This document shows positions 8,854 to 61,008 of a stretch of DNA of 64,000 bases, piece after piece. A program made the position numbers and the translations under genes. Source of the DNA: an uncultured Planctomycetia bacterium (GTDB lineage Bacteria; Omnitrophota; Gorgyraeia; Gorgyraeales; Gorgyraeaceae); NCBI GenBank assembly GCA_964415355.1, contig CAYPYS010000002.1, positions 8,048-72,047 on the forward strand, in the 5' to 3' direction. A model generated the notes under the pieces. The model was not told the DNA's origin, did no database searches, and worked only from the letters and a program-made list of their open reading frames with translations. Positions within the stretch are counted from its first letter, which is position 1. Every line of letters starts with the position of its first letter.

Positions 8854-8888
8854 CTTTACACTTTAACGTTGTTGAAATGTAAAGTTAA
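8851..8888. repeat. palindromic intergenic element copy 5 (opposite orientation; contains upstream stop TAA)
   Basis: taactttacactttaacgttgttgaaatgtaaagttaag. Confidence 0.85.
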
Positions 8889-8904
8889 GAGGAGGAGGAA
8901 GTTG

Positions 8905-18705: not shown

Positions 18706-18914
18706 CGTCGGCTTTTCATCGCTCGGTAACCCAGCCACCTTATTACTTCTGATCGCCTAACTAACCCTTTGAAATATAATAGGTTACGGCTTATCACTAG
18801 TAACTTAGGTCTGTTGGCTTTGCGCCCCCTGATTTCTCTAGGGTTCGCCCTTATCGGCTACTATAAGTTTATCATAGATTAGAGGTGTTTTCAAGCCATA
18901 CGAGGAGGAGATGA

Positions 18915-24877: not shown

Positions 24878-24912
24878 CTTTACATTTCAACAACGTTAAA
24901 ATGTAAAGTTAG
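24875..24912. repeat. palindromic intergenic element copy 12 (contains pilT stop TAA)
   Basis: taactttacatttcaacaacgttaaaatgtaaagttagg. Confidence 0.85.
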
Positions 24913-24920
24913 GAAGGGCT

Positions 24921-29012: not shown

Positions 29013-29192
29013 CACAAGTTACTCTCTCCGCTCGTAACTTGTTTCAAAGGGGTTTCACCCCTATGACGCTACGCAATGCTCCTCTGCGTCGCATTGCTCC
29101 ATTGTTACCCCTCGAGGGGATGCAGGCATTCCCTCGAGCTCCCCAGTTGCATGGAATTAAAATTCCATGCAATGTTGAAGTGTAAAGTTAGG
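28997..29192. mobile_element. expanded (about 196-bp) structured variant of the palindromic element (MITE-like), copy E1
   Basis: repeat arms at both ends; internal hairpins caagttac/gtaacttg, ggggtttcacccc, gcaatgc/gcattgc, ccctcgag x2, gttgcatggaatt..aattccatgcaa; about 90% identical to copy E2. Confidence 0.7.
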
Positions 29193-34451: not shown

Positions 34452-34545
34452 GCTCCGTAAAAGGGCAACTTATCTGAAAGGGTAAGGCGCAAAGCCAGGT
34501 GCCTAAAGCCGCATGAAGCGGACAAGGTCGACCAGCTGCCGTAGA
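34452..34545 (+). promoter_or_regulatory. c-di-GMP-I (GEMM) riboswitch aptamer no. 2
   Basis: GGGCAACUUAUCUGAAAGGGUAAGGCGCAAAGCCAGGUGCCUAAAGCCGC matches the GEMM core; GNRA hairpin. Confidence 0.7.
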
Positions 34546-38758: not shown

Positions 38759-38956
38759 CCTAAGTTTACAATATAACACAAGTTACTCGCTTCGCTCGTA
38801 ACTTGTTTCAAAGGGGTTTTACCCCTATGACGCTACGCAATGTTTCTTTTCGTCACATTGCTCCACTGTTACCCCTCGAGGGACTGCCTGCAGCCCCTCG
38901 AGCTCCCCAGTTGCATGGAATTTTAATTCCATGCAATGTTGAAATGTAAAGTTAGC
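38759..38956. mobile_element. expanded (about 196-bp) structured variant of the palindromic element (MITE-like), copy E2
   Basis: collinear with E1; compensatory change gcaatgt/acattgc vs gcaatgc/gcattgc. Confidence 0.7.
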
Positions 38957-41307: not shown

Positions 41308-41368
41308 TTTTTATCCCTCCCTTGTCTTTAATTCCTTCTTATGATAACATGATAAAAAGGCGTTTGCC

Positions 41369-41410
41369 CCTAACTTTACATTTCAACAACGTTAAAGTGT
41401 AAAGTTAGGC
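41369..41410. repeat. palindromic intergenic element copy 21
   Basis: cctaactttacatttcaacaacgttaaagtgtaaagttaggc. Confidence 0.85.
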
Positions 41411-41417
41411 GAGGAAT

Positions 41418-41708
41418 ATGGACGAAAATCTCTATAATCAGATCCAGGATAGGAAGCTTCATGAGCACGAGGCCTTATGCAAACGTTGCGGTAGCTGCTG
41501 TGGTGTTTTAGAGGGTGACCTTTGCGAACATCTGCAAAAAACGCCTGACAAAGGGTATTTCTGCGATATTTACGAGAATCGTTTCGGGCTGCGAAAGACT
41601 GTAAAAGGCGAACCAGTGCTGTGTGTCCCGATACGTGACATGCTCCACAGGACATGGTGGGGTCGCACCCAGTGCGCTTACGTGAGGCAAGGAGGAGAGA
41701 TAAGATGA
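41418..41708 (+). CDS. YkgJ/UPF0153-family Fe-S/zinc-binding protein
   Basis: CKRCGSCC cluster. Confidence 0.45.
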   Translation: MDENLYNQIQDRKLHEHEALCKRCGSCCGVLEGDLCEHLQKTPDKGYFCDIYENRFGLRKTVKGEPVLCVPIRDMLHRTWWGRTQCAYVRQGGEIR

Positions 41709-44258: not shown

Positions 44259-44668
44259 CTATATTCAATGTAACCAGCGAAAAAGAAGACGTTTTAAAAG
44301 CTAAGATGGAGTCTCTCAACATAAAAGAAAGAGACATAGAGGAAAGGTTTATCCGCGCGAGCAAGAAGGGCGGACAAAAGGTCAATAAGACTTCCTCGTG
44401 CGTTTATCTTAAGCACAGGCCTACGGGAATAGAGGTCAAGTGCCAGAGAGAGCGCTCCCAGGCATTAAACAGGTTTCTGGCCAGAAGGATACTCGCTGAT
44501 AAGATCGAGTCGCTCGTCCTGGGCAAAAAGGCAGCGGAGCAAAAGAGAATAGAAAAGATAAGGCGCCAGAAGAGGAGGCGCTCCCGCCGCGCAAAAGAAA
44601 AGATGCTCAGGTATAAAAAAATCCGATCTCAAAAAAAGGAGCTGCGCAGGCCGCCCGCGCTGGCCTAA
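44255..44668 (+). CDS. arfB: alternative ribosome-rescue factor ArfB (GGQ peptidyl-tRNA hydrolase with basic C-tail)
   Basis: GGQKVNKT motif; about 137 aa; K/R-rich C-terminus; stop TAA inside repeat copy 23. Confidence 0.7.
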   Translation: MTIFNVTSEKEDVLKAKMESLNIKERDIEERFIRASKKGGQKVNKTSSCVYLKHRPTGIEVKCQRERSQALNRFLARRILADKIESLVLGKKAAEQKRIEKIRRQKRRRSRRAKEKMLRYKKIRSQKKELRRPPALA

Positions 44669-44703
44669 GTTTACACTTTAACGTTGTTGAAATGTAAAGT
44701 TAG
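44664..44703. repeat. palindromic intergenic element copy 23 (last copy in window)
   Basis: gcctaagtttacactttaacgttgttgaaatgtaaagttag. Confidence 0.85.
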
Positions 44704-44758
44704 TGTTATGATATTATTGTAAATAAAATGCAGTAAGCAAACAAAAGGAGGAATACCA

Positions 44759-45018: not shown

Positions 45019-45444
45019 ATGAGAATCAGGGTATTTTTGTTATTGGCTATGGTTTTGTTTTTGAAAAACCCGGCCTTGGCTGAAGCTGGCGTGGGAGAAA
45101 AGCTGGCCGGCGTGACCATTAAAAGCACGGTTAAGGTATATGTAGCAATAACAAACATTGAAAAGACAAAGAAGAAGATCGTTGATAAGATACAAAAAAC
45201 AGATAAAAAAGAATTCAGGGAACGATATGCCAAGCTTTATGAGCTGGTAAAGGATTTGCCTTCGGATATAAAGACTACTTACAGGATCACCCCTGGCATG
45301 ACCATGGAGCAGATGGTTGAAAATGTAAGATCAGTAGATAAGAAGGCGGTATATAAAATAATAAATAGCATGTCCGATAGAACTGTTACAGAGCTTTTTA
45401 AGCAATATCTTAAGGAGATGGGCAAAAAATCCAAAAAAATGTAA
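45019..45444 (+). CDS. secreted hypothetical protein
   Basis: signal peptide ALA-EA. Confidence 0.4.
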   Translation: MRIRVFLLLAMVLFLKNPALAEAGVGEKLAGVTIKSTVKVYVAITNIEKTKKKIVDKIQKTDKKEFRERYAKLYELVKDLPSDIKTTYRITPGMTMEQMVENVRSVDKKAVYKIINSMSDRTVTELFKQYLKEMGKKSKKM

Positions 45445-45470
45445 ACTATGATTACAATTAAATGCGGAAA

Positions 45471-45510
45471 GTAAAACCTTCACGGCGAAAGCTGTGAGGG
45501 TTTTTTATTT
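45471..45510 (+). terminator. terminator cassette copy 1 (ccttcacggc gaaa gctgtgaggg plus T-run)
   Basis: hairpin with G-U wobbles plus tttttt; near-identical copies at 45972 and (minus strand) 55371. Confidence 0.6.
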
Positions 45511-45567
45511 TTGACCCCGTCGCCATAAATCCTGAGATATTGGCCGATTGGTGATCCCTGCGACTTA

Positions 45568-45596
45568 TTGACTATTTTGAAGACAGGGTGTAGAAT
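45568..45596 (+). promoter_or_regulatory. promoter TTGACT-17-TAGAAT (promoter cassette copy A, 45523-45617)
   Basis: about 95-bp block nearly identical to 47284-47387. Confidence 0.6.
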
Positions 45597-45617
45597 GAAA
45601 TTAAGTGGGAGGTGCAT

Positions 45618-45890
45618 ATGGACTGGAAGATATTTTTGGCAACGTTTAGCGCTATATTTCTTGCAGAACTTGCAGATAAGACACAGTTTGTTGGTATTGG
45701 CATGTCAGCGAAGTCAGGGAAACCTTTATCGGTTTGGCTTGGCTCTATATCCGCGTATATCATTGTTACTGCTATCACGGTTTTGATCGGAGCTACTCTA
45801 GGAAAGTACATAAAACCCGAGATCGTAAGATATACTGGCGCATCGCTATTTGTAATAATCGGAATTTTGATGTTTTTCGGGAAAATATGA
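45618..45890 (+). CDS. UPF0016 (GDT1/TMEM165) family membrane protein, single-repeat form
   Basis: ELADKTQ motif; 3 TM helices; ATG 45618 after GGGAGG. Confidence 0.6.
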   Translation: MDWKIFLATFSAIFLAELADKTQFVGIGMSAKSGKPLSVWLGSISAYIIVTAITVLIGATLGKYIKPEIVRYTGASLFVIIGILMFFGKI

Positions 45891-45971
45891 AACCTTGACA
45901 AACCTGTGATCCCGATGTAAACTATGACTACAATTAAATAATGTCCCGTGTTTGAAGGATGAAATCCCGGA

Positions 45972-46012
45972 CAATAATAAAGTAAAACCTTCACGGCGAA
46001 AGCTGTGAGGGT
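45972..46012 (+). terminator. terminator cassette copy 2
   Basis: same hairpin plus T-run as 45471-45510, preceded by the same gtaaactatgaYtacaattaaat block. Confidence 0.6.
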
Positions 46013-46038
46013 TTTTTGTTTTATATAACTCCGTGCTA

Positions 46039-46139
46039 TTACCTAACAAATATATTAGAAGTACTGTTTGTTAGGTAACTTTCCTTATTGACATTTGTTA
46101 CCTAACAATGTATACTATTTAATAGAGTGTTAGGTAACA
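46039..46139 (+). promoter_or_regulatory. operator array: four TTACCTAACAA half-sites forming two inverted-repeat pairs overlapping promoter TTGACA(46088)-17-TATACT(46111)
   Basis: 46039-46050/46067-46078 and 46097-46108/46128-46139 read directly. Confidence 0.55.
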
Positions 46140-46151
46140 AGGGGGTGCAAT

Positions 46152-46469
46152 ATGGGCGTTATAAAAGGAGCCTTGAAAGAAGAGCTTGAAAATTCTCTGC
46201 GCATGAAGAAGGAATATGAAAAGGCCTTAAAGGAGCTTCCGGATGGATGCTTGGCCGAAAAGAAGATACGCGGCCATAAATATTATTATTTAGTCAAAAG
46301 GTTCCATAAGAAGGTCAAATATATCTATAAAGGTAAGCTTTTAAAGGAAGAGGTCGCTAAATACAACGACGCTAAGATCCTAAGGGCTAAATACAGAAAA
46401 TTGCTGTCGCAGGTTAAAAAGCAGATAAGGTTTTTAAGGAGTAGTCTACGTGGAAAAGAATCAATATAA
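46152..46469 (+). CDS. small basic hypothetical protein (candidate regulator/antitoxin of the downstream nucleotidyltransferase)
   Basis: overlaps downstream gene by 20 nt; strongly regulated promoter. Confidence 0.35.
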   Translation: MGVIKGALKEELENSLRMKKEYEKALKELPDGCLAEKKIRGHKYYYLVKRFHKKVKYIYKGKLLKEEVAKYNDAKILRAKYRKLLSQVKKQIRFLRSSLRGKESI

Positions 46470-47124
46470 ACTATGCCTCGAGGTCCTCAAGCGGTTTAAT
46501 AAAGCAGGTATTCTGGACGGATTCATTTTGATAGGCAGCTGGTGCCTGTATTTTTACAAGGCCTATTTCAAGAAAACCCCATATATAGATGTTTCTACGC
46601 TTAGAACCAGGGATATAGATTTTTTAATACCTATTCCGCCAAAGATTAGGAAAAGCGTTGATGTGCCAGAGCTACTCAAGGATCTTGGATTTGTGACGGA
46701 TTTTAAAGGAAGCAGAGGCTACATAAAGCTCGATCACCCTGACCTTATATTGGAATTTTTAGTACCGGAAAAAGGCAGAGGGGATGACAGGCCTTACAGG
46801 TTGCCACAATTAGGTATGAACGCTACGTCATTAAGGTTTCTAAGTTTTTTAATGGATAACGTTATCCGAATCAAGGTAGAAGATTTTTATATCAATGTAC
46901 CGCATCCCGCGAATTTCGCATTGCATAAACTTATTATTTTTCAGAGGAGAACAAAGGAGTATAAGGTTTTAAAAGATAAAAATACAGCTATTGGAGTTCT
47001 AAGGGCATTGCTCGATAAAGGCGAAGGCCATATAATCAAAAAGACACTGGGATCTGTTCCTCAGAAGTGGAAGAAAAAGATTATCAAAGGATTGGAGGGA
47101 GAGAAAGCGCTTCATATTTTCTAA
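46450..47124 (+). CDS. nucleotidyltransferase-fold protein (AbiEii/MNT-like GS...RxxDIDF motif)
   Basis: LIGSW...TLRTRDIDFLIP. Confidence 0.4.
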   Translation: MEKNQYKLCLEVLKRFNKAGILDGFILIGSWCLYFYKAYFKKTPYIDVSTLRTRDIDFLIPIPPKIRKSVDVPELLKDLGFVTDFKGSRGYIKLDHPDLILEFLVPEKGRGDDRPYRLPQLGMNATSLRFLSFLMDNVIRIKVEDFYINVPHPANFALHKLIIFQRRTKEYKVLKDKNTAIGVLRALLDKGEGHIIKKTLGSVPQKWKKKIIKGLEGEKALHIF

Positions 47125-47220
47125 TCTCATCTCAGTCGTACGTTCGAAGGGGTTCACTGCGACTCTAAACAATTAAAACCTTCTTTTGTCAACCGTACCA
47201 CCAAACAAAAGGAGGTTTTA

Positions 47221-47322
47221 ATGCTTATAGCCAAGGTTTTCCGACTTATCCTGATAACCATAATCTTCATAATAGCTTACCTTCCGATCACTATAAATCC
47301 TGAGATATTGGCCGATTGGTGA
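47221..47322 (+). CDS. 33-aa hydrophobic peptide (MLIAKVFRLILITIIFIIAYLPITINPEILADW), type I toxin-like or leader peptide
   Basis: RBS AGGAGG sequestered in hairpin aaaaccttcttttg..caaaaggaggtttt; paralogue on minus strand at 54869-55030. Confidence 0.35.
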   Translation: MLIAKVFRLILITIIFIIAYLPITINPEILADW

Positions 47323-47335
47323 TCCCTGTGACTTA

Positions 47336-47364
47336 TTGACTATTTTAGAGGATGAGGGTAGAAT
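47336..47364 (+). promoter_or_regulatory. promoter TTGACT-17-TAGAAT (promoter cassette copy B, 47284-47387)
   Basis: near-identical to copy A. Confidence 0.6.
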
Positions 47365-47372
47365 GAAATTAA

Positions 47373-48161
47373 ATGGGCAGCGCATATATGAATAAGAAAC
47401 CATTAAGCAAGATGACTCAAGATGAAATAAAAGAGGCAGTTAAAGAAAAATACAGCAAAGTGGCAAAAGAACCCTGCGTTTCGTTTAACTTCCCGGTAGG
47501 AAAGGCTTTTGCTTTAAAAGTAGGTTATCCTAAAGATATACTTGGCAGACTTCCTCGATCCATGTATGAATCCTTTACAGGCGCCAATAATCCTCAACCT
47601 TTTGTGGAGTTAAAAGAGGGAGAAACAGTCTTAGATTTAGGGTGTGGGGCAGGATTAGACCTTTATTTTTATGCAAAAGCAGTAGGAACTAATGGTAAGG
47701 TCTATGGCTTAGATATTTCGCAAGATATGATCAGTAAGGCAAGAGATAATATGGAAGCAGCAGGAGTTAAGAATGCAGAAATTAAATGCGGCCACTCCGA
47801 TAGCCTTCCTTTTGAAGATAATTTTTTTGATATTGTAGCCTCAAATGGAATCTATAATCTATCACCTAACAAAGAAAAAGTTATGAAAGAAGTATTCAGG
47901 GTATTGAAGCCCGGAGGTAGAACTGTTTTTAGTGAAGTTGTTCTAAAAGACAGCCTCCCGGAAAGCATAAAAAAGAATATTGATGACTGGTTTCGGTGTA
48001 TAGGTGGCGCATTGCCTGAAAGAGATTTTTTAGCACTTATGGAAAAGGTTGGATTTAGGAATATAGAGGTTATATCAAAAGTCAGGAATGCCAGAACAGG
48101 TCATAAGTTAGCCATTTGTGCCAACATCCGCGGTTATAAGGGAGGAGTTTTAAATGGATAA
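47373..48161 (+). CDS. ArsM-like class I SAM-dependent methyltransferase
   Basis: VLDLGCGAGLD motif I; DIVASNGIYNLSPNKEKVMKEVFRVLKPGGR matches the ArsM/UbiE-like core, but the GCGNP Cys motif is replaced (TGANNP); alternative start 47388. Confidence 0.55.
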   Translation: MGSAYMNKKPLSKMTQDEIKEAVKEKYSKVAKEPCVSFNFPVGKAFALKVGYPKDILGRLPRSMYESFTGANNPQPFVELKEGETVLDLGCGAGLDLYFYAKAVGTNGKVYGLDISQDMISKARDNMEAAGVKNAEIKCGHSDSLPFEDNFFDIVASNGIYNLSPNKEKVMKEVFRVLKPGGRTVFSEVVLKDSLPESIKKNIDDWFRCIGGALPERDFLALMEKVGFRNIEVISKVRNARTGHKLAICANIRGYKGGVLNG

Positions 48162-48489
48162 GCTTGCAGGAGAAGCGCTTAAATTGGTTGATATGGTGGA
48201 TTATCAAGCTGGGTCTGTGGTGAGCAAGCAGATAATAAAGAAAGACACAGGAACAGTGACTTTGTTTGCCTTTGATAAGGGACAGGGGTTGAGTGAACAT
48301 ACGGTGCCGTTTGACGCCCTGGTTTATATTTTTGACGGTGAGGCAGAGATCACTATAGATGGCAGGCCTAACTTAGTAGGGTCAGGCAATATGATAATCA
48401 TGCCGGCTAATAAACCGCATTCTGTAAAAGCAGCAAAGCGGTTCAAGATGCTTCTTGTAATGATAAAGGAAAAGAACTTAGGTATCTAA
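48154..48489 (+). CDS. cupin-domain protein
   Basis: G(X)5HXH-like EHTVPFDALVYIFDGEA...PANKPHS pattern. Confidence 0.55.
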   Translation: MDKLAGEALKLVDMVDYQAGSVVSKQIIKKDTGTVTLFAFDKGQGLSEHTVPFDALVYIFDGEAEITIDGRPNLVGSGNMIIMPANKPHSVKAAKRFKMLLVMIKEKNLGI

Positions 48490-48881
48490 TGAAAAGACTG
48501 ATAGTATTAATGATAATATTATTATCTATATTTGGATTTTTATTATTTAATAGCAAGGCGCTTCTGATCTACAGGGTAACTGAAGTCAGAGAAGGGGATG
48601 TTCATACGTCGCGCAAGGTGTTCTTTGATTGGGAGACGTTTTTGGATTACCTGAAAGATATTCCTGATAGAGTCATGGGGAGAGTTTTTTTAAAGGGCGT
48701 CAAAGCATCCGGAGATATTAAATTGACCGACAGGGAGCAGGAAAGCATTGGAGAGATAATAAAAGACGTGGGAGTATTGACAGATAAAATAGAAGATAAG
48801 GAAATCGCTGAAGAGATAAATAAGTTGATGGAGAATTACAAGGGCCTGGATGGCCTGATGGAAGAACTTGAACAAAAATAA
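48489..48881 (+). CDS. membrane-anchored hypothetical protein
   Basis: N-terminal TM helix. Confidence 0.35.
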   Translation: MKRLIVLMIILLSIFGFLLFNSKALLIYRVTEVREGDVHTSRKVFFDWETFLDYLKDIPDRVMGRVFLKGVKASGDIKLTDREQESIGEIIKDVGVLTDKIEDKEIAEEINKLMENYKGLDGLMEELEQK

Positions 48882-49422
48882 CAAACGAAGATCAGCTAGG
48901 GGTATCATGAATAAGAAAGGAAATAGCTCTATTATGTTTATATCTACGGTTATCATGGGAATATTGGCTGTGGTGTTGTTATTAGTAGCTTATTATAAAG
49001 GCGTGCATATGACAGGGCTGAATCAGGCCATGCGCATGACCATGCAGATATTGCCTTTGCTTATCTTTGCCTTTATAGTGGCAGGCATGGCGCAGGCGCT
49101 TTTGCCTCACGAGACCATATCCAGATGGATAGGTGAGGAGTCAGGTATGAAGGGCGTATTGATCGGGACAGTGGCCGGGGCAATGACACCTGGCGGGCCG
49201 TATTTGAGTTTACCGATAGTCGCGGGGCTTTTGAAGTCCGGCGCGAGCATAGGCGTGATGGTGGCGTATATTGCCGGCTGGAGTCTTTTGAATATCAGCA
49301 GATTGCCTATGGAGATAGGTATACTCGGGTGGAGATTTACTTTGGTGAGATTTTTGAGCGTTTTAATACTTCCGCCCATAGCCGGGGCCTTCGCGCATTA
49401 TATCAGCAAGGTTTTGAGATAG
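48868..49422 (+). CDS. DUF318-type permease subunit (half-size membrane permease)
   Basis: multi-TM; TPGGPY motif. Confidence 0.45.
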   Translation: MNKNNKRRSARGIMNKKGNSSIMFISTVIMGILAVVLLLVAYYKGVHMTGLNQAMRMTMQILPLLIFAFIVAGMAQALLPHETISRWIGEESGMKGVLIGTVAGAMTPGGPYLSLPIVAGLLKSGASIGVMVAYIAGWSLLNISRLPMEIGILGWRFTLVRFLSVLILPPIAGAFAHYISKVLR

Positions 49423-49916
49423 ACAGATCGTCATTGCGAGATCAATTGCATTGATCCTGCCAGAGTAACTAATAAAGCAAAAGATTAGTATATAGGGGGA
49501 GATTAAGGTTTGCGTAGAGGGTTTTAGCCATATAAACTTGGTTTCTTTATGATTAAGCCTAACCGCCTATAATGTATCTTATGTTAACTTGGTTATATGA
49601 GAAGAAAAGCCATAAGTCTATATGGCTCAATGAGTTGCGTATTTTTGTTAATTGTCTGTGAATAACTCTTTTTCTTCTTTGGTTGGTATATTGCTTGTCA
49701 TTCCCGCTTACACGGGAATCTTAATAGGTAGGTTATTATTACGCGTGTTTTGGCTTATTATAGCCCTTTATAGACCAGATTATTACTAGGTATAGCCTAA
49801 TTACTGCTTCTCCCCCGCTTGTCATCCTCGCGAAAGCGGGGATCCATTAGAAGCTATATTTTTACCCCTTATAAACCCATCGACCCCTAAAAACCAGTAG
49901 TCGATATAAACCTATA

Positions 49917-50453
49917 TTAATCTAATATCAGACGAAATGATTTTGTTCTCTCAAAAACAGTATTCCTTAGCTCCCTATGAACTCTTTGCAAAATTGGCAA
50001 TAGTCTAATTCTTCTAAAGTTATCCCAATCGTCAAATGTTCGATAATCATTATTAAAAACCATATTGTTTAATTCAGATTGCAATTGGGCGATTAAATCT
50101 ACTATCTCTGTACCATAATACAATCCCATCAGACCAAGCTGTAAATAGCTTTCTCTCGTAGCTCTATTAAAATTATCCAAAGAGACTTGTCTTCTTTGGA
50201 TAATTTCAGGATTATTGTTAGTTATGCTACCCTGTTGTATCTGTAGATTAATATTGGCAAGTTCCCACATCGAAATCAACATGAGACACAGACTATTCAA
50301 AATGTTTGTAGCTGTGTTATCCTTAGCAATAAGGTATTTAGTCTTTATGTCTCTTTCAAAGTGAAATTTGGCAATTTGTATAGTAGTGTAAGCAACAATA
50401 ATAGGCGATATAAGGCCGAATACTATTGTTTTAATAATTGCATCGGAAAACAT
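49917..50453 (-). CDS. hypothetical protein with N-terminal TM helix
   Basis: no recognisable motifs. Confidence 0.35.
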   Translation of the reverse strand: MFSDAIIKTIVFGLISPIIVAYTTIQIAKFHFERDIKTKYLIAKDNTATNILNSLCLMLISMWELANINLQIQQGSITNNNPEIIQRRQVSLDNFNRATRESYLQLGLMGLYYGTEIVDLIAQLQSELNNMVFNNDYRTFDDWDNFRRIRLLPILQRVHRELRNTVFERTKSFRLILD

Positions 50454-50571
50454 AATATCCCTACCAATCCTTTTTTAAATACTTATAGTGTTTGTAATAC
50501 TACCTAACAACCCCGCCCCTATCAACCTCTTCCTTGCTGTAAGCTGTGCTAAAATAAGACACTGCTATCGA

Positions 50572-51420
50572 TCACGCTTTAATATTACTGACCTCCCGAA
50601 CAAGTCTAATCCCAGTATACATTCTATCTAAGAATTGTCTTTCTAGTTTCATTTTCTCATACCTATTCCTTGGATGATGGGAAAGATTACGTACTCCTTT
50701 GTAAGATATTAAATCATTGCATAGCGTAACATCAAAATACTTCTTTTGCTTCTTTCGAGCACCGCCTTTATTCCTCCAATTAGGAGCCGATAACAGCTTA
50801 ATTTTTGTTTCAAAATTGTAATTTTGCACCTCTCCAATTGTCGGCACTATTTTTTTTGCCCTTGCCGCTGCTTCCGCTAATGTATCCACTAATCCTTCTA
50901 TTAGCTCAGTTATATCTCTAATCGCATCGATAAAGTTACCTTCGTTGAATTTTTCGCAAATCTTAACAATGTCTTTCCTGTATCTGCCCGGACGATGCAT
51001 CTCTGCTTCTCCGATTCTCATATTGCATTGCACGGCATTGCGATGCACGATAACGTTATTATCACACACCAATAAGATGCCTAAGCCATATTTCTTGGCT
51101 AACGTTAAAAAGCTATGAGAAAAAGAAGTTTCCTTATCATCTGTAGAATGAGGAAAGGCCAAAAATATTTCAATTCTTTCTTGGTTGATCAAGCATTCCT
51201 TAACAAAAGTCTCAAAATATTCTTGTAATTGTGGTTTTTCTTGTATTTCTATAACTAATACTGCTGAGCCGCGTTTATGACACACTAACGCTGGTTTGAA
51301 TTGATATTGGGGAGCAAGTGGTTTTTCGAATGAAATTCTTCTATAGGTTTTCTTTTCATAATATTTAATGAGCGTCTTAGCAATAGACCAAAGATTCTCG
51401 CTTAAAAATTGAAATTTCAT
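50572..51420 (-). CDS. hypothetical protein (unknown; co-operonic with ParB-like gene)
   Basis: 3-nt gap to upstream gene. Confidence 0.4.
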   Translation of the reverse strand: MKFQFLSENLWSIAKTLIKYYEKKTYRRISFEKPLAPQYQFKPALVCHKRGSAVLVIEIQEKPQLQEYFETFVKECLINQERIEIFLAFPHSTDDKETSFSHSFLTLAKKYGLGILLVCDNNVIVHRNAVQCNMRIGEAEMHRPGRYRKDIVKICEKFNEGNFIDAIRDITELIEGLVDTLAEAAARAKKIVPTIGEVQNYNFETKIKLLSAPNWRNKGGARKKQKKYFDVTLCNDLISYKGVRNLSHHPRNRYEKMKLERQFLDRMYTGIRLVREVSNIKA

Positions 51421-51422
51421 AA

Positions 51423-52364
51423 TTAAATAATTTTAGTTATAATCTTATATAATTCTTTCAGCTTATTTGCAACTTCTTTGTCTTCTTTGATCTTGCTGTC
51501 CATCCTTTTTAATTTATTAACTAGAGACTCTATTTCTTTTTTTAAATTCCTTTCTTGGTAAGCATCGGCGACAGATTCATTGTAAGCATCTTCTATCCTA
51601 TATTTTGGATTGTTTATTAACTTTTTAATTATAGGGATTGCTTTTTTACTTGGAACGCCTGCTTTCTCAGAACGAGCTATTTTGCTAACATCTCTTAATT
51701 TAACAATGTTAGATATTACACCATCTTTATACTTTTTAAAAAATCTTTGCATTATTTTTTCTTTAGAGTTACTTTCTAAAACTTCGGGCATATATCTTTC
51801 TATTGCCCTGCTTGCTTTCATGGCCTCCAAAAAGAAATCCTCCGAAAATTTTTGTTCTGCCTTGGGTTTTGAAAGCTCTTTTCTTAATAGATTTAAATAT
51901 TTCGTGGGCAAACTTAGTATATCAAAAGCTCTTTTTGCAGTTGCGGGAGTAATGCCTGTTACCGCTGTTATGTCTTTCAAAGAATAAGGCTTATTTTCTT
52001 TTTTTAATAAATTCTCTATTTCTTTAAGTTTCAGTGCTGTTGCAAACAAGTCCCATTGAACACGAACATTATGTATATTGAACATTCTTAAAATATTCTC
52101 TAGCCTAGTTGGCCTTGGTTCAATTATGGTAGGAACGCGAGATAAATTTAACTTCTTAGCACACAACCAGCGCCTTTCCCCATCAAGTAATATATACCTA
52201 TTACTTTTAACATCTTCATAAATAGCTAAAGGAACTCTAATGCCTACTTTTTGTATAGAATTTAATAGGACTTGGAGCTCTTCTTCTCTAAAAATTATAC
52301 GTGGATTATCTGGATTTCTCTTGATTTTGTCTGGATTAATATTGGCTAATCTGGTTCCTGACAT
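51423..52364 (-). CDS. ParB/Srx-fold (ParB-like nuclease domain) protein
   Basis: NPDNPR...LLNSIQKVG...RYILLDGERRWLCAKKL...VP ParB N-terminal signature. Confidence 0.6.
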   Translation of the reverse strand: MSGTRLANINPDKIKRNPDNPRIIFREEELQVLLNSIQKVGIRVPLAIYEDVKSNRYILLDGERRWLCAKKLNLSRVPTIIEPRPTRLENILRMFNIHNVRVQWDLFATALKLKEIENLLKKENKPYSLKDITAVTGITPATAKRAFDILSLPTKYLNLLRKELSKPKAEQKFSEDFFLEAMKASRAIERYMPEVLESNSKEKIMQRFFKKYKDGVISNIVKLRDVSKIARSEKAGVPSKKAIPIIKKLINNPKYRIEDAYNESVADAYQERNLKKEIESLVNKLKRMDSKIKEDKEVANKLKELYKIITKII

Positions 52365-52384
52365 AACCTGTCTCCTTATTTAAT

Positions 52385-53191
52385 TTAAAAATTTGTTATT
52401 ACTAATTCTGGGACTTTTTTTCTCTTCTTTACATTCCCTGCTATCAAGCTTCTTCTTTTAACAAGAGTTAAATTGAAATTCTTATACAACCTTCTTATAT
52501 AATCGTGCTCTGCATTGCTCATGATAATCTTGCATCCTTTTTTATCAAGCTCAACAACAGCATCTTTTAAGCGATTTTGATCTTTTAATGAAAATATTCT
52601 CGAATTATATTCTATAAAACCATTATTTTTATGTGAAGTAGTATAGGGAGGGTCTAAATAAATTAAATCACCTTCCGTAGTATCTTTTACTGCTTTTTCA
52701 AAATCAAGACCTCTTATAGTTACATTTTTTAATATCTTACTAACATTTTTTAATTTCTCTTCGTCGCAAATCGTCGGATTATCATATCGGCCTATAGGAA
52801 CATTAAATCTACCTTTGGGATTAACTCTATACAAACCGTTCCAGCATGTTTTATTAAGGTAGATAAATCGGGCAGCCCTTCTTAAATTATTTGACAATCT
52901 CTGTGAACGAATGTTGTAATAGTATTTCTTCTGGTAGGGCATATTTTTTAAAAATTTTATAACTCCGCCAACATTTCTTTTTATTTGTTGATAGCTATTT
53001 ATTAATTCTGAATTTAAGTCTGATAAATATGCTTCTTTAGGTTCTAATGCAAAAAACAAAGCACCACTACCCAAAAAGGGCTCAAAATAGCGGTTGTAAT
53101 TTTTTGGAATAATTTTTAGTAGTTCAGGTAATAGAGCTTTTTTGCCACCTGCCCATTTCAAAAAAGGCCTAGTAGTAACTTTTTTACTCAT
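52385..53191 (-). CDS. Dam-family (alpha-class) N6-adenine DNA methyltransferase
   Basis: FLKWAGGKK...EPFLGSGA motif I; DPPY motif IV. Confidence 0.85.
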   Translation of the reverse strand: MSKKVTTRPFLKWAGGKKALLPELLKIIPKNYNRYFEPFLGSGALFFALEPKEAYLSDLNSELINSYQQIKRNVGGVIKFLKNMPYQKKYYYNIRSQRLSNNLRRAARFIYLNKTCWNGLYRVNPKGRFNVPIGRYDNPTICDEEKLKNVSKILKNVTIRGLDFEKAVKDTTEGDLIYLDPPYTTSHKNNGFIEYNSRIFSLKDQNRLKDAVVELDKKGCKIIMSNAEHDYIRRLYKNFNLTLVKRRSLIAGNVKKRKKVPELVITNF

Positions 53192-53242
53192 TTTTGTTTT
53201 TTTAGTCTATTTTTAAAATAAATAGAGCTATGGTTCCGTCTG

Positions 53243-53878
53243 TTAAGGCTCTACTCCTAAAATTAACAAAGGTACTGGTGGGTTATTACGGCCATGACGT
53301 AGAATATTGTATACTTCTCCTTCATAATAAGCTACGCCACTTGACATCTGAGACTGCATTTTCTTTGTTGGTAGGATTTCAACACCAAGATTTATGACCC
53401 CGCCAGAATAAAAAAGCAAGTGCTTAACAAATAAGTCAAAAGCAACAAAGGCATATTTGCCAAACTGTACTTCTACGGCAACTTGTTTTTTTACAAAATC
53501 AGTTTGCTTATATGATGCAATTGGGTGCTTAGTACCGTTTTTAATCAGAAATTCTTTCTGTTTTTTGTAAGATAAAGGAACTAATTCTTGCATTATTTTA
53601 TAATCGGTTGTTACATAGTACTGATAGCGACTTTCTTTCCACCCATGAGTTCTAAATTTATTCCTGAATTTTTCATTAAGCGCTATAGGGCTATATAGAG
53701 GCTTGCCTTTCATGGTTTTCTCTTTGCTGATCTTTGTCATTAGCTTTTTAGCGTCTATGCTGTTTATGGTTTTGATAATCTCATTATACAAACTCTTGTG
53801 ATGGACTATTAAATACTCTTCTCCGTTTAGGTGGGAATGTTTCTGTGCTATACGCATACATAGGCTCCTTTCATCCAC
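53243..53878 (-). CDS. putative type II restriction endonuclease (BglII/BamHI-like arrangement EVQFGK..LGVEILP)
   Basis: position between two MTases; E-x-Q / hydrophobic pattern similar to the BamHI E111-E113 region. Confidence 0.4.
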   Translation of the reverse strand: MDERSLCMRIAQKHSHLNGEEYLIVHHKSLYNEIIKTINSIDAKKLMTKISKEKTMKGKPLYSPIALNEKFRNKFRTHGWKESRYQYYVTTDYKIMQELVPLSYKKQKEFLIKNGTKHPIASYKQTDFVKKQVAVEVQFGKYAFVAFDLFVKHLLFYSGGVINLGVEILPTKKMQSQMSSGVAYYEGEVYNILRHGRNNPPVPLLILGVEP

Positions 53879-54852
53879 TCTTTAGGAATTCTGGCCATTT
53901 TGTCATTAGGAGAAGGATTGTGTATGGGTTTATTGATAGGCCGAAGCTTTAGTTTATTGTTTTTTAACATTAATAAGCGTTTTTTGGCGGTTTCTATATA
54001 TTTTTTGTTGCTGTCTATTCCTATAGCATTTCTGTTGTTTTTCATAGCTGCGATTAATGTCGAGCCAACACCTGCATATGGATCTAATACCCAGCTGCCT
54101 TCTTTTGTTAAAGCGAGGATGCACCGTTCTACAAGTTCGACAGGAAATTGACAAGGATGAGTAGTTTTTTCAGGATGGTTTGCTTTAACATTTGGTATGT
54201 TCCAAAAGCCTTTTTCCCAATCTTTGCTTAAAATCTCCCATACATCAGAAGGATTTTTTCCATTAGGATTTCCAGAAAGCTTTCCTCTCTTGGGGCCCTT
54301 GAAATGTTTTTTTCCAGGATATTTTGCAGGTATACGTACATTATCTAAATTGAAAATATAGTCATTTGATTTAGAAAACCATAGGATTGTTTCGTACCTG
54401 CCTGAGAATCTCTTGGATGCATGTAGTCCGTGCCCAAAATGCCAAATTAATCTATTTCTAAGTTTTAAGCCGTGTTTTTTAAATATATTATAATAAAAAA
54501 TATCAAGTGGGAATATCTCTCCTTTATTAACGTAATTGCCTATTTGCCAACAAATACTGCCTCTTTTAGACGTTAACTTAACAAGCTGCTCGATGACTCT
54601 ACCTTGTTTATCTAAATACCGCTCTATTGATTCTTTATTTTCGTATTCCTTCCCTAGGTTATAAGGGGGAGAAGTAATTATTAGATCGAATTTTCCTTTA
54701 TCTAGTTTCTCTAAATTTCTGAGAGTGTCTCCTAGTATAAGCTTGGTCTCTGTATTTTTATACATATTGTTTATTTTAGTTAAATTAGAGCTCGCCATTT
54801 TCTTGGATTCTCCTGCTGAAGCTTGCCCAAAAAGATCATTAATTAATGTCAT
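53848..54852 (-). CDS. beta-class N6-adenine/N4-cytosine DNA methyltransferase
   Basis: SPPY motif IV near N-terminus; DPYAGVGST motif I near C-terminus; start set at second Met after AGGAGG. Confidence 0.75.
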   Translation of the reverse strand: MTLINDLFGQASAGESKKMASSNLTKINNMYKNTETKLILGDTLRNLEKLDKGKFDLIITSPPYNLGKEYENKESIERYLDKQGRVIEQLVKLTSKRGSICWQIGNYVNKGEIFPLDIFYYNIFKKHGLKLRNRLIWHFGHGLHASKRFSGRYETILWFSKSNDYIFNLDNVRIPAKYPGKKHFKGPKRGKLSGNPNGKNPSDVWEILSKDWEKGFWNIPNVKANHPEKTTHPCQFPVELVERCILALTKEGSWVLDPYAGVGSTLIAAMKNNRNAIGIDSNKKYIETAKKRLLMLKNNKLKLRPINKPIHNPSPNDKMARIPKEWMKGAYVCV

Positions 54853-54868
54853 TTTACACCTCCTTAGG

Positions 54869-55030
54869 TTAATAGTCAATAGCGCTGACTATATTATCTA
54901 ATTCTATATAATAGGACATACTATCTCTTGGGTTTCTTTCAAATGTTTTTGGATTTATTGTTATAGGCAGGTAGGTGATTATAAAGATAGCTGTTATTAG
55001 GATGCTTTTAATAAACTTGGTTAGAAACAC
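54869..55030 (-). CDS. 53-aa hydrophobic peptide (VFLTKFIKSILITAIFIITYLPITINPKTF...), paralogue of 47221-47322
   Basis: GTG start after AGGAGG inside hairpin aaaaccttctttac..gtaaaggaggtttt; shares LIT-IIFII-YLPITINP. Confidence 0.3.
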   Translation of the reverse strand: MFLTKFIKSILITAIFIITYLPITINPKTFERNPRDSMSYYIELDNIVSAIDY

Positions 55031-55223
55031 AAAAACCTCCTTTACGGTTATGTAAAGAAGGTTTTAATTATTTTATAGTCGCAGTTCCCCCTTCCTTAAC
55101 GTACGACTTGAGGATTTTCTTCTCAGGCATATATTGAAGACTAAAGCCACAGGCATCCTGCAAGGGTACGCACTACTATAAGTTGCACCAAAATAGGACG
55201 CCTGCTATTCCGCGTTCTATTGC

Positions 55224-55346
55224 TTATGCTTTTTTGATTCTTTCAACAACAGCGGTTCTTTTCTGCCTTCTCGCTCTTGCTACAGGAATAAATCTACCTG
55301 TTATAGCGCTTCTTCCAGCCAGCCTTGTTTTACTTTTCTTGCTCAT
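55224..55346 (-). CDS. 40-aa basic peptide MSKKSKTRLAGRSAITGRFIPVARARRQKRTAVVERIKKA (speculative)
   Basis: RBS gaaaggaggtgg; directly follows terminator cassette copy 3. Confidence 0.25.
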   Translation of the reverse strand: MSKKSKTRLAGRSAITGRFIPVARARRQKRTAVVERIKKA

Positions 55347-55370
55347 TGCAATCCACCTCCTTTCTCAAAA

Positions 55371-55410
55371 AACAGAAAAACCCTCACAGCTTTCGCCATG
55401 AAGGTTTTAC
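55371..55410 (-). terminator. terminator cassette copy 3 (minus strand)
   Basis: reverse complement = gtaaaaccttcatggcgaaagctgtgagggtttttctgtttttt. Confidence 0.45.
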
Positions 55411-55614
55411 TTTTTTAACGTCCGGGATTTACCCCTTCTTAACTCGGGACTTTATTTGATTATACTTATATTTTACATGCCAGGGGTGGGTTTGTCAAGG
55501 ATTTGCACTCTCGTTAACTCATTTGCAAATCACTTTTTAACCCCGTCTGCCCTCGCCTACCCTTTTCTCTCTATCTAAGACACTGCATCATCGAAGCCTT
55601 AAAGCTTTTCCTCG

Positions 55615-56804: not shown

Positions 56805-56948
56805 ATAGTGTTCCTTTCTTTTTATCTTCATTATGATATAACAACAAAAAGCAACCCCGACATTATGCCAAGATTGCTTTATATTATAGAAATATTGACT
56901 TCTTTCCCACTCCCACCCCATTGTGGTTATTGTATATATGATACTACG

Positions 56949-56977
56949 TTAGGCTTATTGAGTCAAGGTGAGGCGTG
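56949..56977 (-). promoter_or_regulatory. minus-strand promoter TTGACT-17-TATCAT within a conserved 45-bp module (copy 1)
   Basis: near-identical module at 60950-60998. Confidence 0.5.
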
Positions 56978-57042: not shown

Positions 57043-59277
57043 TTATTTGGCATATAAATGTTTTCTAACCAGGTCAAAATCATCTAATGCATCATGCGGC
57101 ATTGCAGCGCCATATCTTTCTATAATAGCTATATACTCCTCCCTTGTATCTCCTTGGACATTATCAGCTATTATAAAAACCGTTCTTTCAGGGATTTCAA
57201 TGCGTTTTCTTATTTCATCTTCTTGAGTCTTGAAATATACAATAATGACCGGAACTTCGTGCGGAGAAATATTACTAATTCCATGTCTAATTTTTTCTAA
57301 TCCAGCTTCATCCGCTAATATGTTACCTTCAAATAAGCTTGCTCCATTAAATAAGACAGGAGTTGCTTCTATTAAAGAAGAAGCGTGTTTATCATATTGC
57401 AGCTCAATATCCTTTTGAACAAAAGCAAGAACCATGGCAGCAATAAGCATTGGCGTGACTTCTTCTTTCGCTACAAGTTCTTGCATTAAAGGCAATTCAG
57501 ATGGACTAAGACCGATATCGTTAAGAACCTCTTGCGGTAATTCAGATAGGTCTAAATCAAAACCTGCAAAGTCTGCTGGTGAAAATTCAAATAAGTTTAG
57601 ACCAAAGCCAGCCCTGTACGCATGCCCTCCGCCCCATCTTCCTTTAGGTCCATTTATACATAAGAAGCTGACATCGATTTCATCAAAATCAGATCTCCGC
57701 GCCAAAAGTACAGCCATGCTATTATCTTCTGCTATATAATAATGTACCAATACTCTGTTGCCAAACTGACCATTATCATTAAGAAGGCCGAATACTATCT
57801 TGTGCACGAGAAGGGTAACGTTACCTTTTTCTGCCGGAATTTTATAAAAATAAACCTTCCTGTTAGAAGCAAGGAATTCTTTTATAGAGCCATCAACCTC
57901 GTTCATGATACCTCTGGACCACTCAAAGAAATCATCTCCGAATCTCCTCTGCATCGTTTCTTCAAGCCCTCTCCTTAAATCTTCAAAGGAACCGCTAGAA
58001 GAGATAACCTGAATGATTTCTTTCATTGCTCCGCGCCTTTTCGCGAGTTCTTCCGGTTTCCAATTAAATAAATAAGTCCCGCATAGATTAAGTAGCCCTG
58101 AAACATGCCTAGCTTCTTCTGAATCAAGATCTTTGTTTAGACTTGGGAAATTTGAAGAAGAATAATCGGCGTAAAGAGACAGTTGTTTTAAGAAATGATA
58201 CCAAGGATCACCTTCTGTCTTCATCAGGTCTGCTTCAAATGCACCTGAAGCATAGCTATCAGGATCCGCTACTTCTCCGATAATAAGGTGGACATTTATA
58301 AGAAATATTTTATCTCTTTCGTATTTATCAATACAATTGTTAAATGTTCCGATGTTATTAGCAGCTATAAACTCCTTGCTCCATTTATGGTGATCCTGCA
58401 CAATGATAGTATCGAAACCAAAAGAATCGCTTAAACTGCCTCTTTTATATCTATCAGGCTCGGGAAGAAAAACATCCCCTACAAAAAGAGCCCTTTTACC
58501 CTTTAATTCTGAAAAATCAATCATCCTTTCATCTTCTTTATAGTGTGACAAAGGCAAAAGACATATATAAAGCTTCCCGTCGTGCCTCGCATCATTAGGG
58601 TCAGTGATGAATTCTACGTCTCTACCTTTGCCTCCTGCTTCATGAACCAGTCTGCGGTATACTGCTGCAGAAAAAGTAAAAGAATCTCCATCTATCGGTA
58701 TTTTTTGATTGTCATGGGGCGATATAACGACAATAGAATACTCATCAATAATTTTCTCTATCAAGTTGTCCAATAGCTGCTTTATCTTATTAAGATTACT
58801 AGCTTTATTTTCCCATTCATGCGCCAGATACTCTTCTGTTTCTATGACACCCTTGTCCCTATTCTGAATCCTGCGAAACTCACTTTCTTCTTTAGGCCAA
58901 AATAATCCATCTTTATATATTGCATAAGTATTTGTTTCAGCGTGATGTATCCAGGCATTTCCATGGACATCCTCTATCACTTGAAGATCTTCATCTTCTA
59001 TAAACTTAGATAACTCAGGGTCTTTTCTTAAACTTTCAAGAAACTGCTGAGGCGAAATGTTTGTTTTATTCTTCAGTATTTTTTGATAAGCGGCTGATAG
59101 TGATGCCCAGAAATATCTAGAGATTGTATTGCTATCACTATTATTAAAATCAAGCTCTTTTCTAAGATGGGTTTTATTGGATAACTCTATACCATAGACT
59201 GCAGCGTTAAAGAAAAGTACTCCAGCTGCAATTATTGATATAATTTTATAAGTTAAGGGTTTACTAAAGTTTTTCAT
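57043..59277 (-). CDS. large exported/membrane-anchored DHH-DHHA1 family phosphoesterase with about 250-aa N-terminal extension
   Basis: DGD, DHH (IVQDHHKW) and GGGH (GRWGGGHAYRAG) motifs; N-terminal TM/signal. Confidence 0.5.
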   Translation of the reverse strand: MKNFSKPLTYKIISIIAAGVLFFNAAVYGIELSNKTHLRKELDFNNSDSNTISRYFWASLSAAYQKILKNKTNISPQQFLESLRKDPELSKFIEDEDLQVIEDVHGNAWIHHAETNTYAIYKDGLFWPKEESEFRRIQNRDKGVIETEEYLAHEWENKASNLNKIKQLLDNLIEKIIDEYSIVVISPHDNQKIPIDGDSFTFSAAVYRRLVHEAGGKGRDVEFITDPNDARHDGKLYICLLPLSHYKEDERMIDFSELKGKRALFVGDVFLPEPDRYKRGSLSDSFGFDTIIVQDHHKWSKEFIAANNIGTFNNCIDKYERDKIFLINVHLIIGEVADPDSYASGAFEADLMKTEGDPWYHFLKQLSLYADYSSSNFPSLNKDLDSEEARHVSGLLNLCGTYLFNWKPEELAKRRGAMKEIIQVISSSGSFEDLRRGLEETMQRRFGDDFFEWSRGIMNEVDGSIKEFLASNRKVYFYKIPAEKGNVTLLVHKIVFGLLNDNGQFGNRVLVHYYIAEDNSMAVLLARRSDFDEIDVSFLCINGPKGRWGGGHAYRAGFGLNLFEFSPADFAGFDLDLSELPQEVLNDIGLSPSELPLMQELVAKEEVTPMLIAAMVLAFVQKDIELQYDKHASSLIEATPVLFNGASLFEGNILADEAGLEKIRHGISNISPHEVPVIIVYFKTQEDEIRKRIEIPERTVFIIADNVQGDTREEYIAIIERYGAAMPHDALDDFDLVRKHLYAK

Positions 59278-60928: not shown

Positions 60929-60958
60929 GTCTACCCCCTCTCTGTGTTGATCATATAT

Positions 60959-60987
60959 ATGATACTACTTTGGGTTTATCAAGTCAA
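60959..60987 (-). promoter_or_regulatory. minus-strand promoter TTGACT-17-TATCAT (conserved 45-bp module, copy 2)
   Basis: 24-nt leader to the lipopeptide start. Confidence 0.5.
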
Positions 60988-61008
60988 GATGGGGAAAGCT
61001 CGGGGGAT

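Follow-up and report, generated by a model that had tools for sequence, protein, structure and literature searches.

A two-part RNA leader heads a family of predicted signal-anchor-like peptide genes in Omnitrophota

The DNA analysed here, referred to as the window, is a stretch of 64,000 nucleotides from an uncultured bacterium that GTDB places in the Omnitrophota (GenBank assembly GCA_964415355.1, contig CAYPYS010000002.1, positions 8,048 to 72,047 of the forward strand), and it carries two small open reading frames (sORFs), A and B, each headed by a structured RNA leader. An earlier description made from the letters alone (the sequence-only reading) had recognized both sORFs, and their coordinates and peptides stand as given there. 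The sORF A (47221-47322, + strand) belongs to what we term type A below and encodes 33 amino acids (aa), MLIAKVFRLILITIIFIIAYLPITINPEILADW, and sORF B (54869-55030, - strand) is of type B, starts with GTG and encodes 53 aa, (M)FLTKFIKSILITAIFIITYLPITINPKTFERNPRDSMSYYIELDNIVSAIDY. The two peptides are 58% identical, and the DNA identity of about 70% claimed for them is borne out by a 102-nt inverted repeat whose arms are 71% complementary (47208-47309 versus 54942-55043). The degenerate codon pattern for YLPITINP is found at the A and B sites only, with 0.09 occurrences expected by chance. The 3' fragment of a third copy is also real and longer than had been stated: positions 45520-45619 are 86% identical to 47288-47387 and hold the last nine codons and stop of an sORF along with a promoter of the form TTGACT-17-TAGAAT. 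This type A remnant, copy C (45520-45554, +; ending ..INPEILADW before the stop), is joined directly to the tail of a leader terminator (T1 of the degenerate unit S1, described below), and the junction is a deletion scar.

The hairpin AAAACCTTCTTT...AAAGGAGGTTTT, which the sequence-only reading proposed to cover the Shine-Dalgarno (SD) sequence, is present in both copies and shows compensatory changes in relatives. At copy A (47172-47222, +) its 18 bp mask the SD AAAGGAGG together with the first two letters of the AUG, and the 104-nt segment comprising a preceding hairpin, the SD hairpin and the start of the ORF (47132-47235) folds with -28.5 kcal/mol (z = -3.6). At copy B (55032-55065, -) the stem of 14 bp (55065-55032) is followed directly by U5 and is therefore also terminator-like, with a fold z-score of -3.0. 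The conserved block reaches farther than had been described, to about 60 nt 5' of each SD hairpin, where it forms the hairpin H2 (AGUCGUAYGUU..GAAGGGG..ACUGCGACU). This hairpin, an example of what we call the H-box, is located at 47134-47164 (+; loop GAAGGGG) in copy A and at 55077-55108 (-) in copy B, matching the H-box covariance model (CM) with 73 and 66 bits, respectively.

A second module, also beyond the sequence-only reading, occurs three times in the window (45895-46022, +; 55498-55370, -; and, in degenerate form, 45442-45512, +), 0.34-1.2 kb further upstream of the conserved H2/SD-hairpin block. It is composed of a consensus promoter (P_S), the hairpin H1 and an intrinsic terminator of 14 bp, T1, and is homologous to unit 1 of the native leader described below. 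In the copy S2 (+), P_S (TTGACA-17-TAAACT, 45895-45923) is followed by H1, an H-box with the loop GAAGGAUG (45943-45972; CM match of 59 bits), and by T1 (45984-46022), whose 14-bp stem has the invariant AAAACCUUC as its 5' arm and ends in a U tract. The copy S3 (-) has P_S (TTGACA-17-TAAAAT, 55470-55498), H1 (55420-55450; CM match of 66 bits) and T1 (55366-55408; stem 55408-55377 plus U tract) in the same order. The degenerate copy S1 has kept the -10 box TAAACT and T1 (45473-45504) and has lost the -35 box and H1 by deletion, with a weak CM match remaining at 45459-45485. The CM search thus finds exactly four strong H-boxes and one remnant in the window.

Relatives were found at about 20 loci, almost all of them in metagenome-assembled genomes (MAGs) of Omnitrophota (loci are given by their L numbers). 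Searches of GTDB genomes and JGI metagenomes by tblastn with the peptides gave no matches, and DNA patterns of the hairpin and of H2 were required instead: the SD-hairpin pattern retrieved three true relatives and the H2 pattern nine further ones, of which all but a few bear the label Candidatus Omnitrophota. These relatives by themselves make the organism of the window, which stems from the metagenome series SUTE22-1, almost certainly a member of the Omnitrophota. At the protein level the peptides retrieved only the B peptide of the window and one over-called 59-aa ORF in the syntenic contig L005, and an exhaustive hidden Markov model search of 1.84 billion representative proteins gave 11 clusters with predicted products of 33-83 aa, several of which could be placed on contigs. 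The peptides match no family in Pfam (E<=0.01) or NCBIfam (E<=0.001), and Rfam has no family for the leader modules at the gathering threshold and only noise over them at E<=10. Neither peptide family nor leader is described in Rfam, Pfam, NCBIfam, PADLOC or the literature searched. The peptides are an undescribed, Omnitrophota-specific family of 33-64 aa, restricted to this phylum and mostly overlooked by gene callers, and the two-part RNA leader is likewise previously undescribed. Omnitrophota are uncultured, and essentially nothing is known of their gene regulation.

At 10 loci the modules that are separate in the window are contiguous, in the order P_S (a near-consensus sigma-70 promoter), H1, an A-rich linker, UAAAACCUUC/T1, a gap of 8-15 nt, H2, a second A-rich linker, UAAAACCUUC/SD hairpin and ATG. 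Thus, T1 and H2 are parts of one leader and not the ends of an insert. A different reading prompted by L005, in which T1 and H2 delimit a mobile element and AAAACCTTC is its duplicated target, was rejected because 10 relatives have T1 and H2 adjacent. In L005 the SD hairpin and a 33-aa sORF come directly after the promoter and H1; this locus is a deletion derivative from which T1 and H2 were lost between two AAAACCTTC repeats. In the window, inserted genes part both peptide genes from their P_S-H1-T1.

The H-box hairpin is built of 4 bp, a pyrimidine mismatch, 1 bp, a 1-nt bulge and 2-3 bp, and holds AAGGGG in its loop. The invariant UAAAACCUUC forms the 5' arm of T1 in unit 1 and that of the SD hairpin (14-18 bp) in unit 2, where the 3' arm contains the SD and the first part of the AUG. 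RNAalifold predicts four hairpins, with compensatory changes in five pairs of T1 and two pairs of the SD hairpin. The alignment of 30 distinct H-box sequences has 25 invariant columns, and the eight pairs of the H stem are 93.8% paired, compared with 31-44% in slid controls; in three of these pairs both bases differ among the subtypes GUCC/GGAC (H1), GUCG/CGAC (H2) and GUGC/GCAC (the aligned L073 copy), the last of which is seen also in L063 and L069. Fold z-scores across the leaders range from -3.0 to -5.4, the full leader of L056 reaching -65.5 kcal/mol with z = -5.4. The CCUUC within the invariant 5' arm is the complement of the H loop AAGGGG(G), and in L045 AAGGGGG serves as a genuine SD, which identifies the loop motif as an SD mimic. 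In every case the CM match (59-76 bits) is situated 10-25 nt past a promoter or else adjoins the end of a preceding gene or terminator.

These leaders also contain GC-rich, structured insertions with lengths of 30-150 nt, several built around GGCGGATCCGCC palindromes (L061 45-215; L068 2060-2190; L070 2095-2135 and 2415-2450; L069 1215-1250). They occupy H loops, A-rich linkers or the loop of the SD hairpin, leave the flanking conserved pieces intact, and look like a miniature repeat aimed at the loops of RNA elements.

The sORFs A and B appear, from their pattern of substitution, to be genuine coding genes for short transmembrane (TM) peptides. The sense frame is kept in all 13 copies, with substitutions of the coding type, and every other frame, antisense included, is interrupted by stops in most copies and open in no more than 2 of the 13; an antisense ORF as the cause of the conservation was rejected on this basis. 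The refuting case named in the sequence-only reading, a shared non-coding module whose frame is not kept in other copies, is not borne out. Variability by codon position is 97/54/158, and the mean pN/pS is 0.40 in frame versus 1.66 and 1.57 in the shifted frames. For example, sORF A differs from its L005 counterpart by nine synonymous and two non-synonymous changes. The peptides have two basic residues, about 15 hydrophobic residues (maximum Kyte-Doolittle hydrophobicity over 19 residues of 1.9-2.75) and a conserved YLP(I/V)(T/S)(I/L)NP motif. Those of type A (window A, L005, L053, L062, L064) are 33 aa long, end in NP.(I/V/A)(L/F)..(W/Y), and are followed by a P_S-type promoter 6-50 nt downstream. 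Type B peptides (window B, L024, L056, L061, L068, L069) have 41-64 aa, contain ..INPKIFER.. and often end in ..IDY, and the 3' end of their genes overlaps TTGACTATTAA.

The same leader also precedes a third class, type C, which consists of secreted proteins of 100-303 aa with weak, sub-threshold FG-GAP or DUF3108-like matches in Pfam for three of the five. The N-terminus of type C is colinear with the sORF peptides, without gaps, over about 31 residues, and ends at a signal-peptidase site, ..INVSAFA|. The n- and h-regions of these Sec signal peptides, including a (Y/F)(L/F)P(I/V)x(I/L)N motif, and the identical upstream leader are thus shared with the sORFs, which differ in having neither an AXA cleavage site nor a mature domain and in stopping after 5-35 further residues. 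Judged by this homology, the sORF peptides would be uncleaved, signal-anchor-like derivatives or paralogues of the cleavable type C signal peptide.

We put at about even the chance that the sORFs encode a doubly gated, signal-anchor-like peptide within a modular promoter/leader cassette system. Going by the hairpins, the peptide would be made only once transcription has read through T1 and the SD hairpin has then melted. Each H loop (GAAGG) could rival the downstream 3' arm for the CCUUC by way of an H-type pseudoknot, which would flip T1 to read-through and open the SD hairpin, such that one signal would govern both termination and initiation. Because 5 bp cannot outcompete 14-18 bp unaided, the pseudoknot would need a helper, perhaps a ligand or protein, a 30S subunit bound at the SD mimic, or RNase III, which would cut the long helices. 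The peptide produced would insert as a signal anchor.

Several observations weigh against this explanation. The SD hairpin (~14-18 bp) is far more stable than a pseudoknot helix of 5 bp, and a helper factor has to be assumed; the bases that would pair between loop and CCUUC are invariant, which makes covariation uninformative for this pairing, and two loops start with CAAGG or AAAGG and would form one pair fewer. The covariation of the H stem itself rests on about three subtype switches and hence on few independent events. Versions with a single unit exist (L005, L068, L069, L073), as do units with insertions of 30-150 nt in loop or linker. Finally, frameshifts or truncations affect several type B copies (L055, L060, L056, L024), and part of the peptide family may be decaying.

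As for the modular character of the system, a further promoter of the P_S type lies behind each sORF of the window and drives variable cargo (the ArsM cluster, the restriction-modification (R-M) cluster and GDT1). Behind sORF A lies the promoter P2 (TTGACT-17-TAGAAT; 47336-47364, +), a paralogue of P_S with a common AATTAAAT after the -10 box, which drives an ArsM-like gene (47373-48161); another copy of P2 (TTGACT-17-TAGAAT; 45568-45596, +) lies 3' of the remnant C and drives the GDT1 gene (45618-45890). The genes behind sORF B (52385-54851, -) form a type II R-M cluster, with an N6_N4 methyltransferase (54851-53848), a BglII-like endonuclease (53878-53243) and a D12 methyltransferase (53191-52385). 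The sequence-only reading had placed each copy immediately upstream of a methyltransferase gene, and this is correct for the ArsM-like gene (47373-48161) after A and the N6_N4 DNA methyltransferase gene (53848-54851) after B, whereas the remnant C precedes one half of a GDT1 transporter and the adjacency is not general across the family. The genes next to the short type A sORFs encode ArsM, flavodoxin, YjbQ and alpha-2-macroglobulin (A2M), among others. DNA methyltransferases recur only after type B (four confirmed and one probable of eight loci), being of the N6_N4 kind in the window, L056, L069 and probably L068, and of the D12 kind in L024, and the remaining type B loci have DUF6996/6997 or RhuM and Fic next.

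In the window, L056 and L061 the common sequence extends through the ribosome-binding site (RBS) and the first three codons (MTL) of cargo genes that belong to different families, which points to exchange of cargo at the module boundary; the cargo of L069 starts with MSL and that of L068 with MPF. The region downstream of the peptidase U32 and RF-1-domain genes is plastic and differs between the window and the syntenic L005. Three copies of unit 1 and three copies of the sORF 3' end with P2 flank GDT1, the NTP_transf_8 operon, the ArsM-cupin-ArsP cluster and the type II R-M cluster, and T1 is identical in all three window copies while varying freely between genomes. The recombination scars, namely the fusion of copy C to T1 and the L005 deletion between AAAACCTTC repeats, suggest that the repeated promoter and leader pieces act as recombination points at which cargo is shuffled, and that this shuffling, and not a regulatory link, would put methyltransferase genes beside the sORFs. 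The modules punctuate a zone of plasticity and may drive the swapping of genes for defence and resistance in the manner of cassettes. Copies A and B, being inverted relative to each other, could in principle form an invertible switch; this was considered separately and rejected, as the 7.6-kb segment and its surroundings lack a recombinase and the identity of the arms is only 71%.

Among published systems the nearest analogue is the set of PeSL promoter/stem-loop modules of T4-like phages, which mediate gene shuffling in a hyperplastic region and are repeated short promoter-plus-terminator modules at the junctions of swapped, unrelated genes (PMC4122927). As with PeSL, homologous recombination between modules could account for the scars in these genomes. 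The Omnitrophota modules differ in being cellular, much longer and more structured and in including an apparently translated sORF, and recombination between them is read from scars only.

A broader reading, which we regard as possible at clearly less than even probability, is that the H-box represents a new class of RNA switch, responsive to a ligand or factor, with terminator and SD-sequestering platforms that are often in tandem. It would define an Omnitrophota regulon of signal-anchor peptides, secreted adhesin-like proteins, A2M/PBP1C, a (p)ppGpp-hydrolase-like HD protein and a DNA-repair radical SAM enzyme. The leader has traits of this kind, being a conserved 5'-UTR domain near the promoter with interchangeable platforms, terminator or SD-sequestering, that are overlapped by UAAAACCUUC; riboswitches and antitermination targets typically show just such a combination of compact conserved leader, two kinds of platform and diverse downstream genes. 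Regular-expression and CM searches of the collected loci place an H-box with T1 directly 5' of a gene for a 1617-aa A2M, which itself comes immediately after a 33-aa sORF, of a RelA/SpoT-type HD gene, of the DNA-repair radical SAM gene rSAM_link_UDG, and of a 40-aa ORF in the window. The rSAM_link_UDG gene is also located between T1 and H2 in L055 and is present as a remnant in L070. A peptide precursor of the RiPP kind beside a radical SAM enzyme was considered and rejected, since the enzyme between T1 and H2 (L055, L062/L063) is of the DNA-repair type TIGR03916. In L074 (12860-13240; IMG/VR UViG_3300027835_000015, a viral classification that may be wrong) two consecutive H-box-T1 units lie ahead of a 35-aa Zn-ribbon ORF and one further ORF; the second unit lacks a promoter of its own, which would make it an intercistronic attenuator.

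The H-box units resemble the small ON pseudoknot riboswitches (fluoride/crcB, the preQ1-I topology and SAM-II) in their conserved domain of about 50 nt directly after the promoter, in a possible H-type topology (a hairpin, an A-rich linker and a loop-complementary 3' strand that overlaps the 5' arm of the terminator or SD helix), and in having both types of platform, a tandem arrangement and several copies per genome before diverse genes. They differ from these riboswitches in that Rfam gives no match, the set of genes suggests no ligand and the pseudoknot is only putative, and the polarity is reversed relative to preQ1-I, with an SD-like loop and an anti-SD-like tail. Alternatively, the H-box may be an element that depends on a protein, the ribosome or RNase III.

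The sequence-only reading had taken a short TM peptide with an occluded RBS as the hallmark of type I toxins. Under this reading the peptides would be membrane toxins silenced by the terminator and SD hairpin, with an antisense RNA that escaped detection as antitoxin or, in a variant, with the presumably abundant ~85-nt P_S-H1-T1 transcript acting in trans through base-pairing of its AAAACCUUC to the SD of the sORF and of its loop to the anti-SD arm. Like the type I toxin mRNAs tisB/istR-1, hok/sok, fst/RNAII and txpA/ratA, the sORFs encode peptides of less than 60 aa with one TM helix behind an SD buried in stable 5' structure, and exist in multiple copies, some of them in mobile islands. The size (33-64 aa), single TM segment and occluded SD fit, as do the several copies per genome (two plus the remnant in the window; L046 and L056 on the same contig; L042 and L060 in the same MAG) and the position of type B copies at the edges of R-M and Fic islands. 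An SD-like 'standby' element upstream, as in the tisB model, is a further resemblance.

An occluded RBS, however, is not specific to toxins here, as the same leader and a colinear hydrophobic N-terminus are found on ordinary secreted proteins of 100-303 aa. A promoter scan of 10 loci found no conserved antisense promoter or sRNA, five of the ten having none at all and the rest having candidates at inconsistent positions, though an atypical sRNA could escape such a scan; an antisense TTAATA-17-TATTAT site is common to window copy B and L061. No cis-antisense or divergent complementary sRNA of the kind that accompanies type I toxin mRNAs was found, and the sORF mRNAs differ further in carrying an intrinsic terminator within the leader, in sharing that leader with non-toxin genes and in encoding a peptide that is homologous to a signal peptide. 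The unit 1 that would act in trans resembles the sORF leader, being paralogous and not antisense to it, and also precedes unrelated genes. No known or described toxin family is matched (Pfam, NCBIfam; Fst, Ldr, Hok, TisB, Ibs, TxpA and others), and the variable C-terminal tails have an acidic or neutral character. The existence of frameshifted and truncated copies would fit counter-selection of a toxin as well as simple decay. Membership among type I toxins is unproven, and we consider it doubtful; if the peptides are toxic, the system would be type I-like with an unusual double lock of terminator plus SD hairpin.

Somewhat less probable still is that the sORFs are relics, i.e., 5' stumps (leader and signal peptide) of secreted-protein genes whose mature part was replaced by cargo with its own promoter and which persist by hitch-hiking with a useful promoter/terminator module. 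The N-terminus and whole leader in common with type C genes (100-303 aa), the tails that bring the peptides to lengths varying from 33 to 64 aa, and the copies with frameshifts or premature stops are in keeping with this, and the remnant C is itself evidence that such truncations happen. Against it, the short forms themselves are under purifying selection (pN/pS 0.40), and six diverged 33-aa copies have the same length, with a terminal W in window A, L053, L062 and L064 and a terminal Y in L005 (P0003 equals L062). The motif YLPI(T/S)INP is moreover confined to the short forms, with F(L/F)P(I/V)Y(I/L)N(V/I)SAFA in its place in type C.

The weakest explanation, also raised in the sequence-only reading, is a regulatory upstream ORF, i.e., a leader or arrest peptide of the SecM/MifM type whose translation or membrane insertion controls a downstream gene such as the methyltransferase; its N-terminal TM segment and strongly conserved, proline-containing C-proximal motif, the type B stop 19 nt before the methyltransferase ATG with an RBS directly after it, and the recurrence of type B before DNA methyltransferases would suit this idea, but it is very unlikely because a sigma-70-type sense promoter (score >=10/12) lies between sORF and next gene in 10/10 loci, the same 10 loci show no terminator or antiterminator after the sORF, the next RBS adjoins the stop in type B only, the downstream genes are diverse and unrelated to secretion (ArsM, GDT1, flavodoxin, YjbQ, A2M, an FxLYD-domain protein, ACT/PCC genes, UvrD), and in L056 the sORF ends 27 nt earlier with the junction sequence nonetheless kept.

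The genes that part T1 from H2 in the window differ between the two copies. At copy A (46023-47133, +) they comprise a promoter (46088-46116), a 105-aa ORF (46152-46469) and a 224-aa NTP_transf_8 protein (46450-47124). Between 46030 and 46150, 5' of this gene pair, a near-consensus promoter TTGACA-17-TATACT lies amid three palindromic, operator-like motifs, TGTTAGGTAAC/GTTACCTAACA, and the pair is probably an autoregulated operon of the toxin-antitoxin type. At copy B a very basic 40-aa ORF, MSKKSKTRLAGRSAITGRFIPVARARRQKRTAVVERIKKA, with a good RBS of its own (55224-55346, -), directly follows T1 and has no family match. A large protein with a conserved N-terminus (..K(I/L)(I/L)S(V/I)I..LCN..LY..) is encoded a few kb from the sORF modules in three genomes (window 57043-59277, -; L046 5941-8000; L053 3281-7129), and its window copy has no match in Pfam.

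A 39-nt imperfect palindrome, CTAACTTTACACTTTAACGTTGTTGAAATGTAAAGTTAG, is present in at least 20 intergenic copies in both orientations between positions 84 and 44714 of the window, often directly before an RBS and ATG (for example at 8843-8899, 24867-24923, 41363-41419 and 44658-44714), and is seen also in L005 (1997-2036). Its ends (GCCTAAC...GTTAGGC) fit the R''/R' consensus of integron attC sites. An attC reading is nevertheless disfavoured, as the copies occur in both orientations and no integrase is seen, and owing to the mixed orientation and the spacing of 0.7-6 kb the copies look more like a REP-type element. At 28997-29191 and 38761-38955, which are 89% identical, the same palindrome is interrupted by some 150 nt of structured sequence that contains several perfect hairpins, and this could be a miniature element nested in the palindrome or a version of it with a long loop.

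The sole Rfam matches in the window are three c-di-GMP-I riboswitches above the gathering score (2491-2577, +; 34454-34543, +; 18722-18859, -), with scores of 73, 62.5 and 54 bits and, in one of them, an insertion of 52 nt. Five to six tandem repeats of 261-276 nt with a WDFGDG motif, resembling PKD-like domain repeats, lie within a large ORF at 4267-5622. Lastly, a 64-nt direct repeat (56910-56973 and 60931-60994; 75% identity) that contains TATATATGATACTAC is located upstream of two minus-strand genes and may be another shared promoter/leader module.

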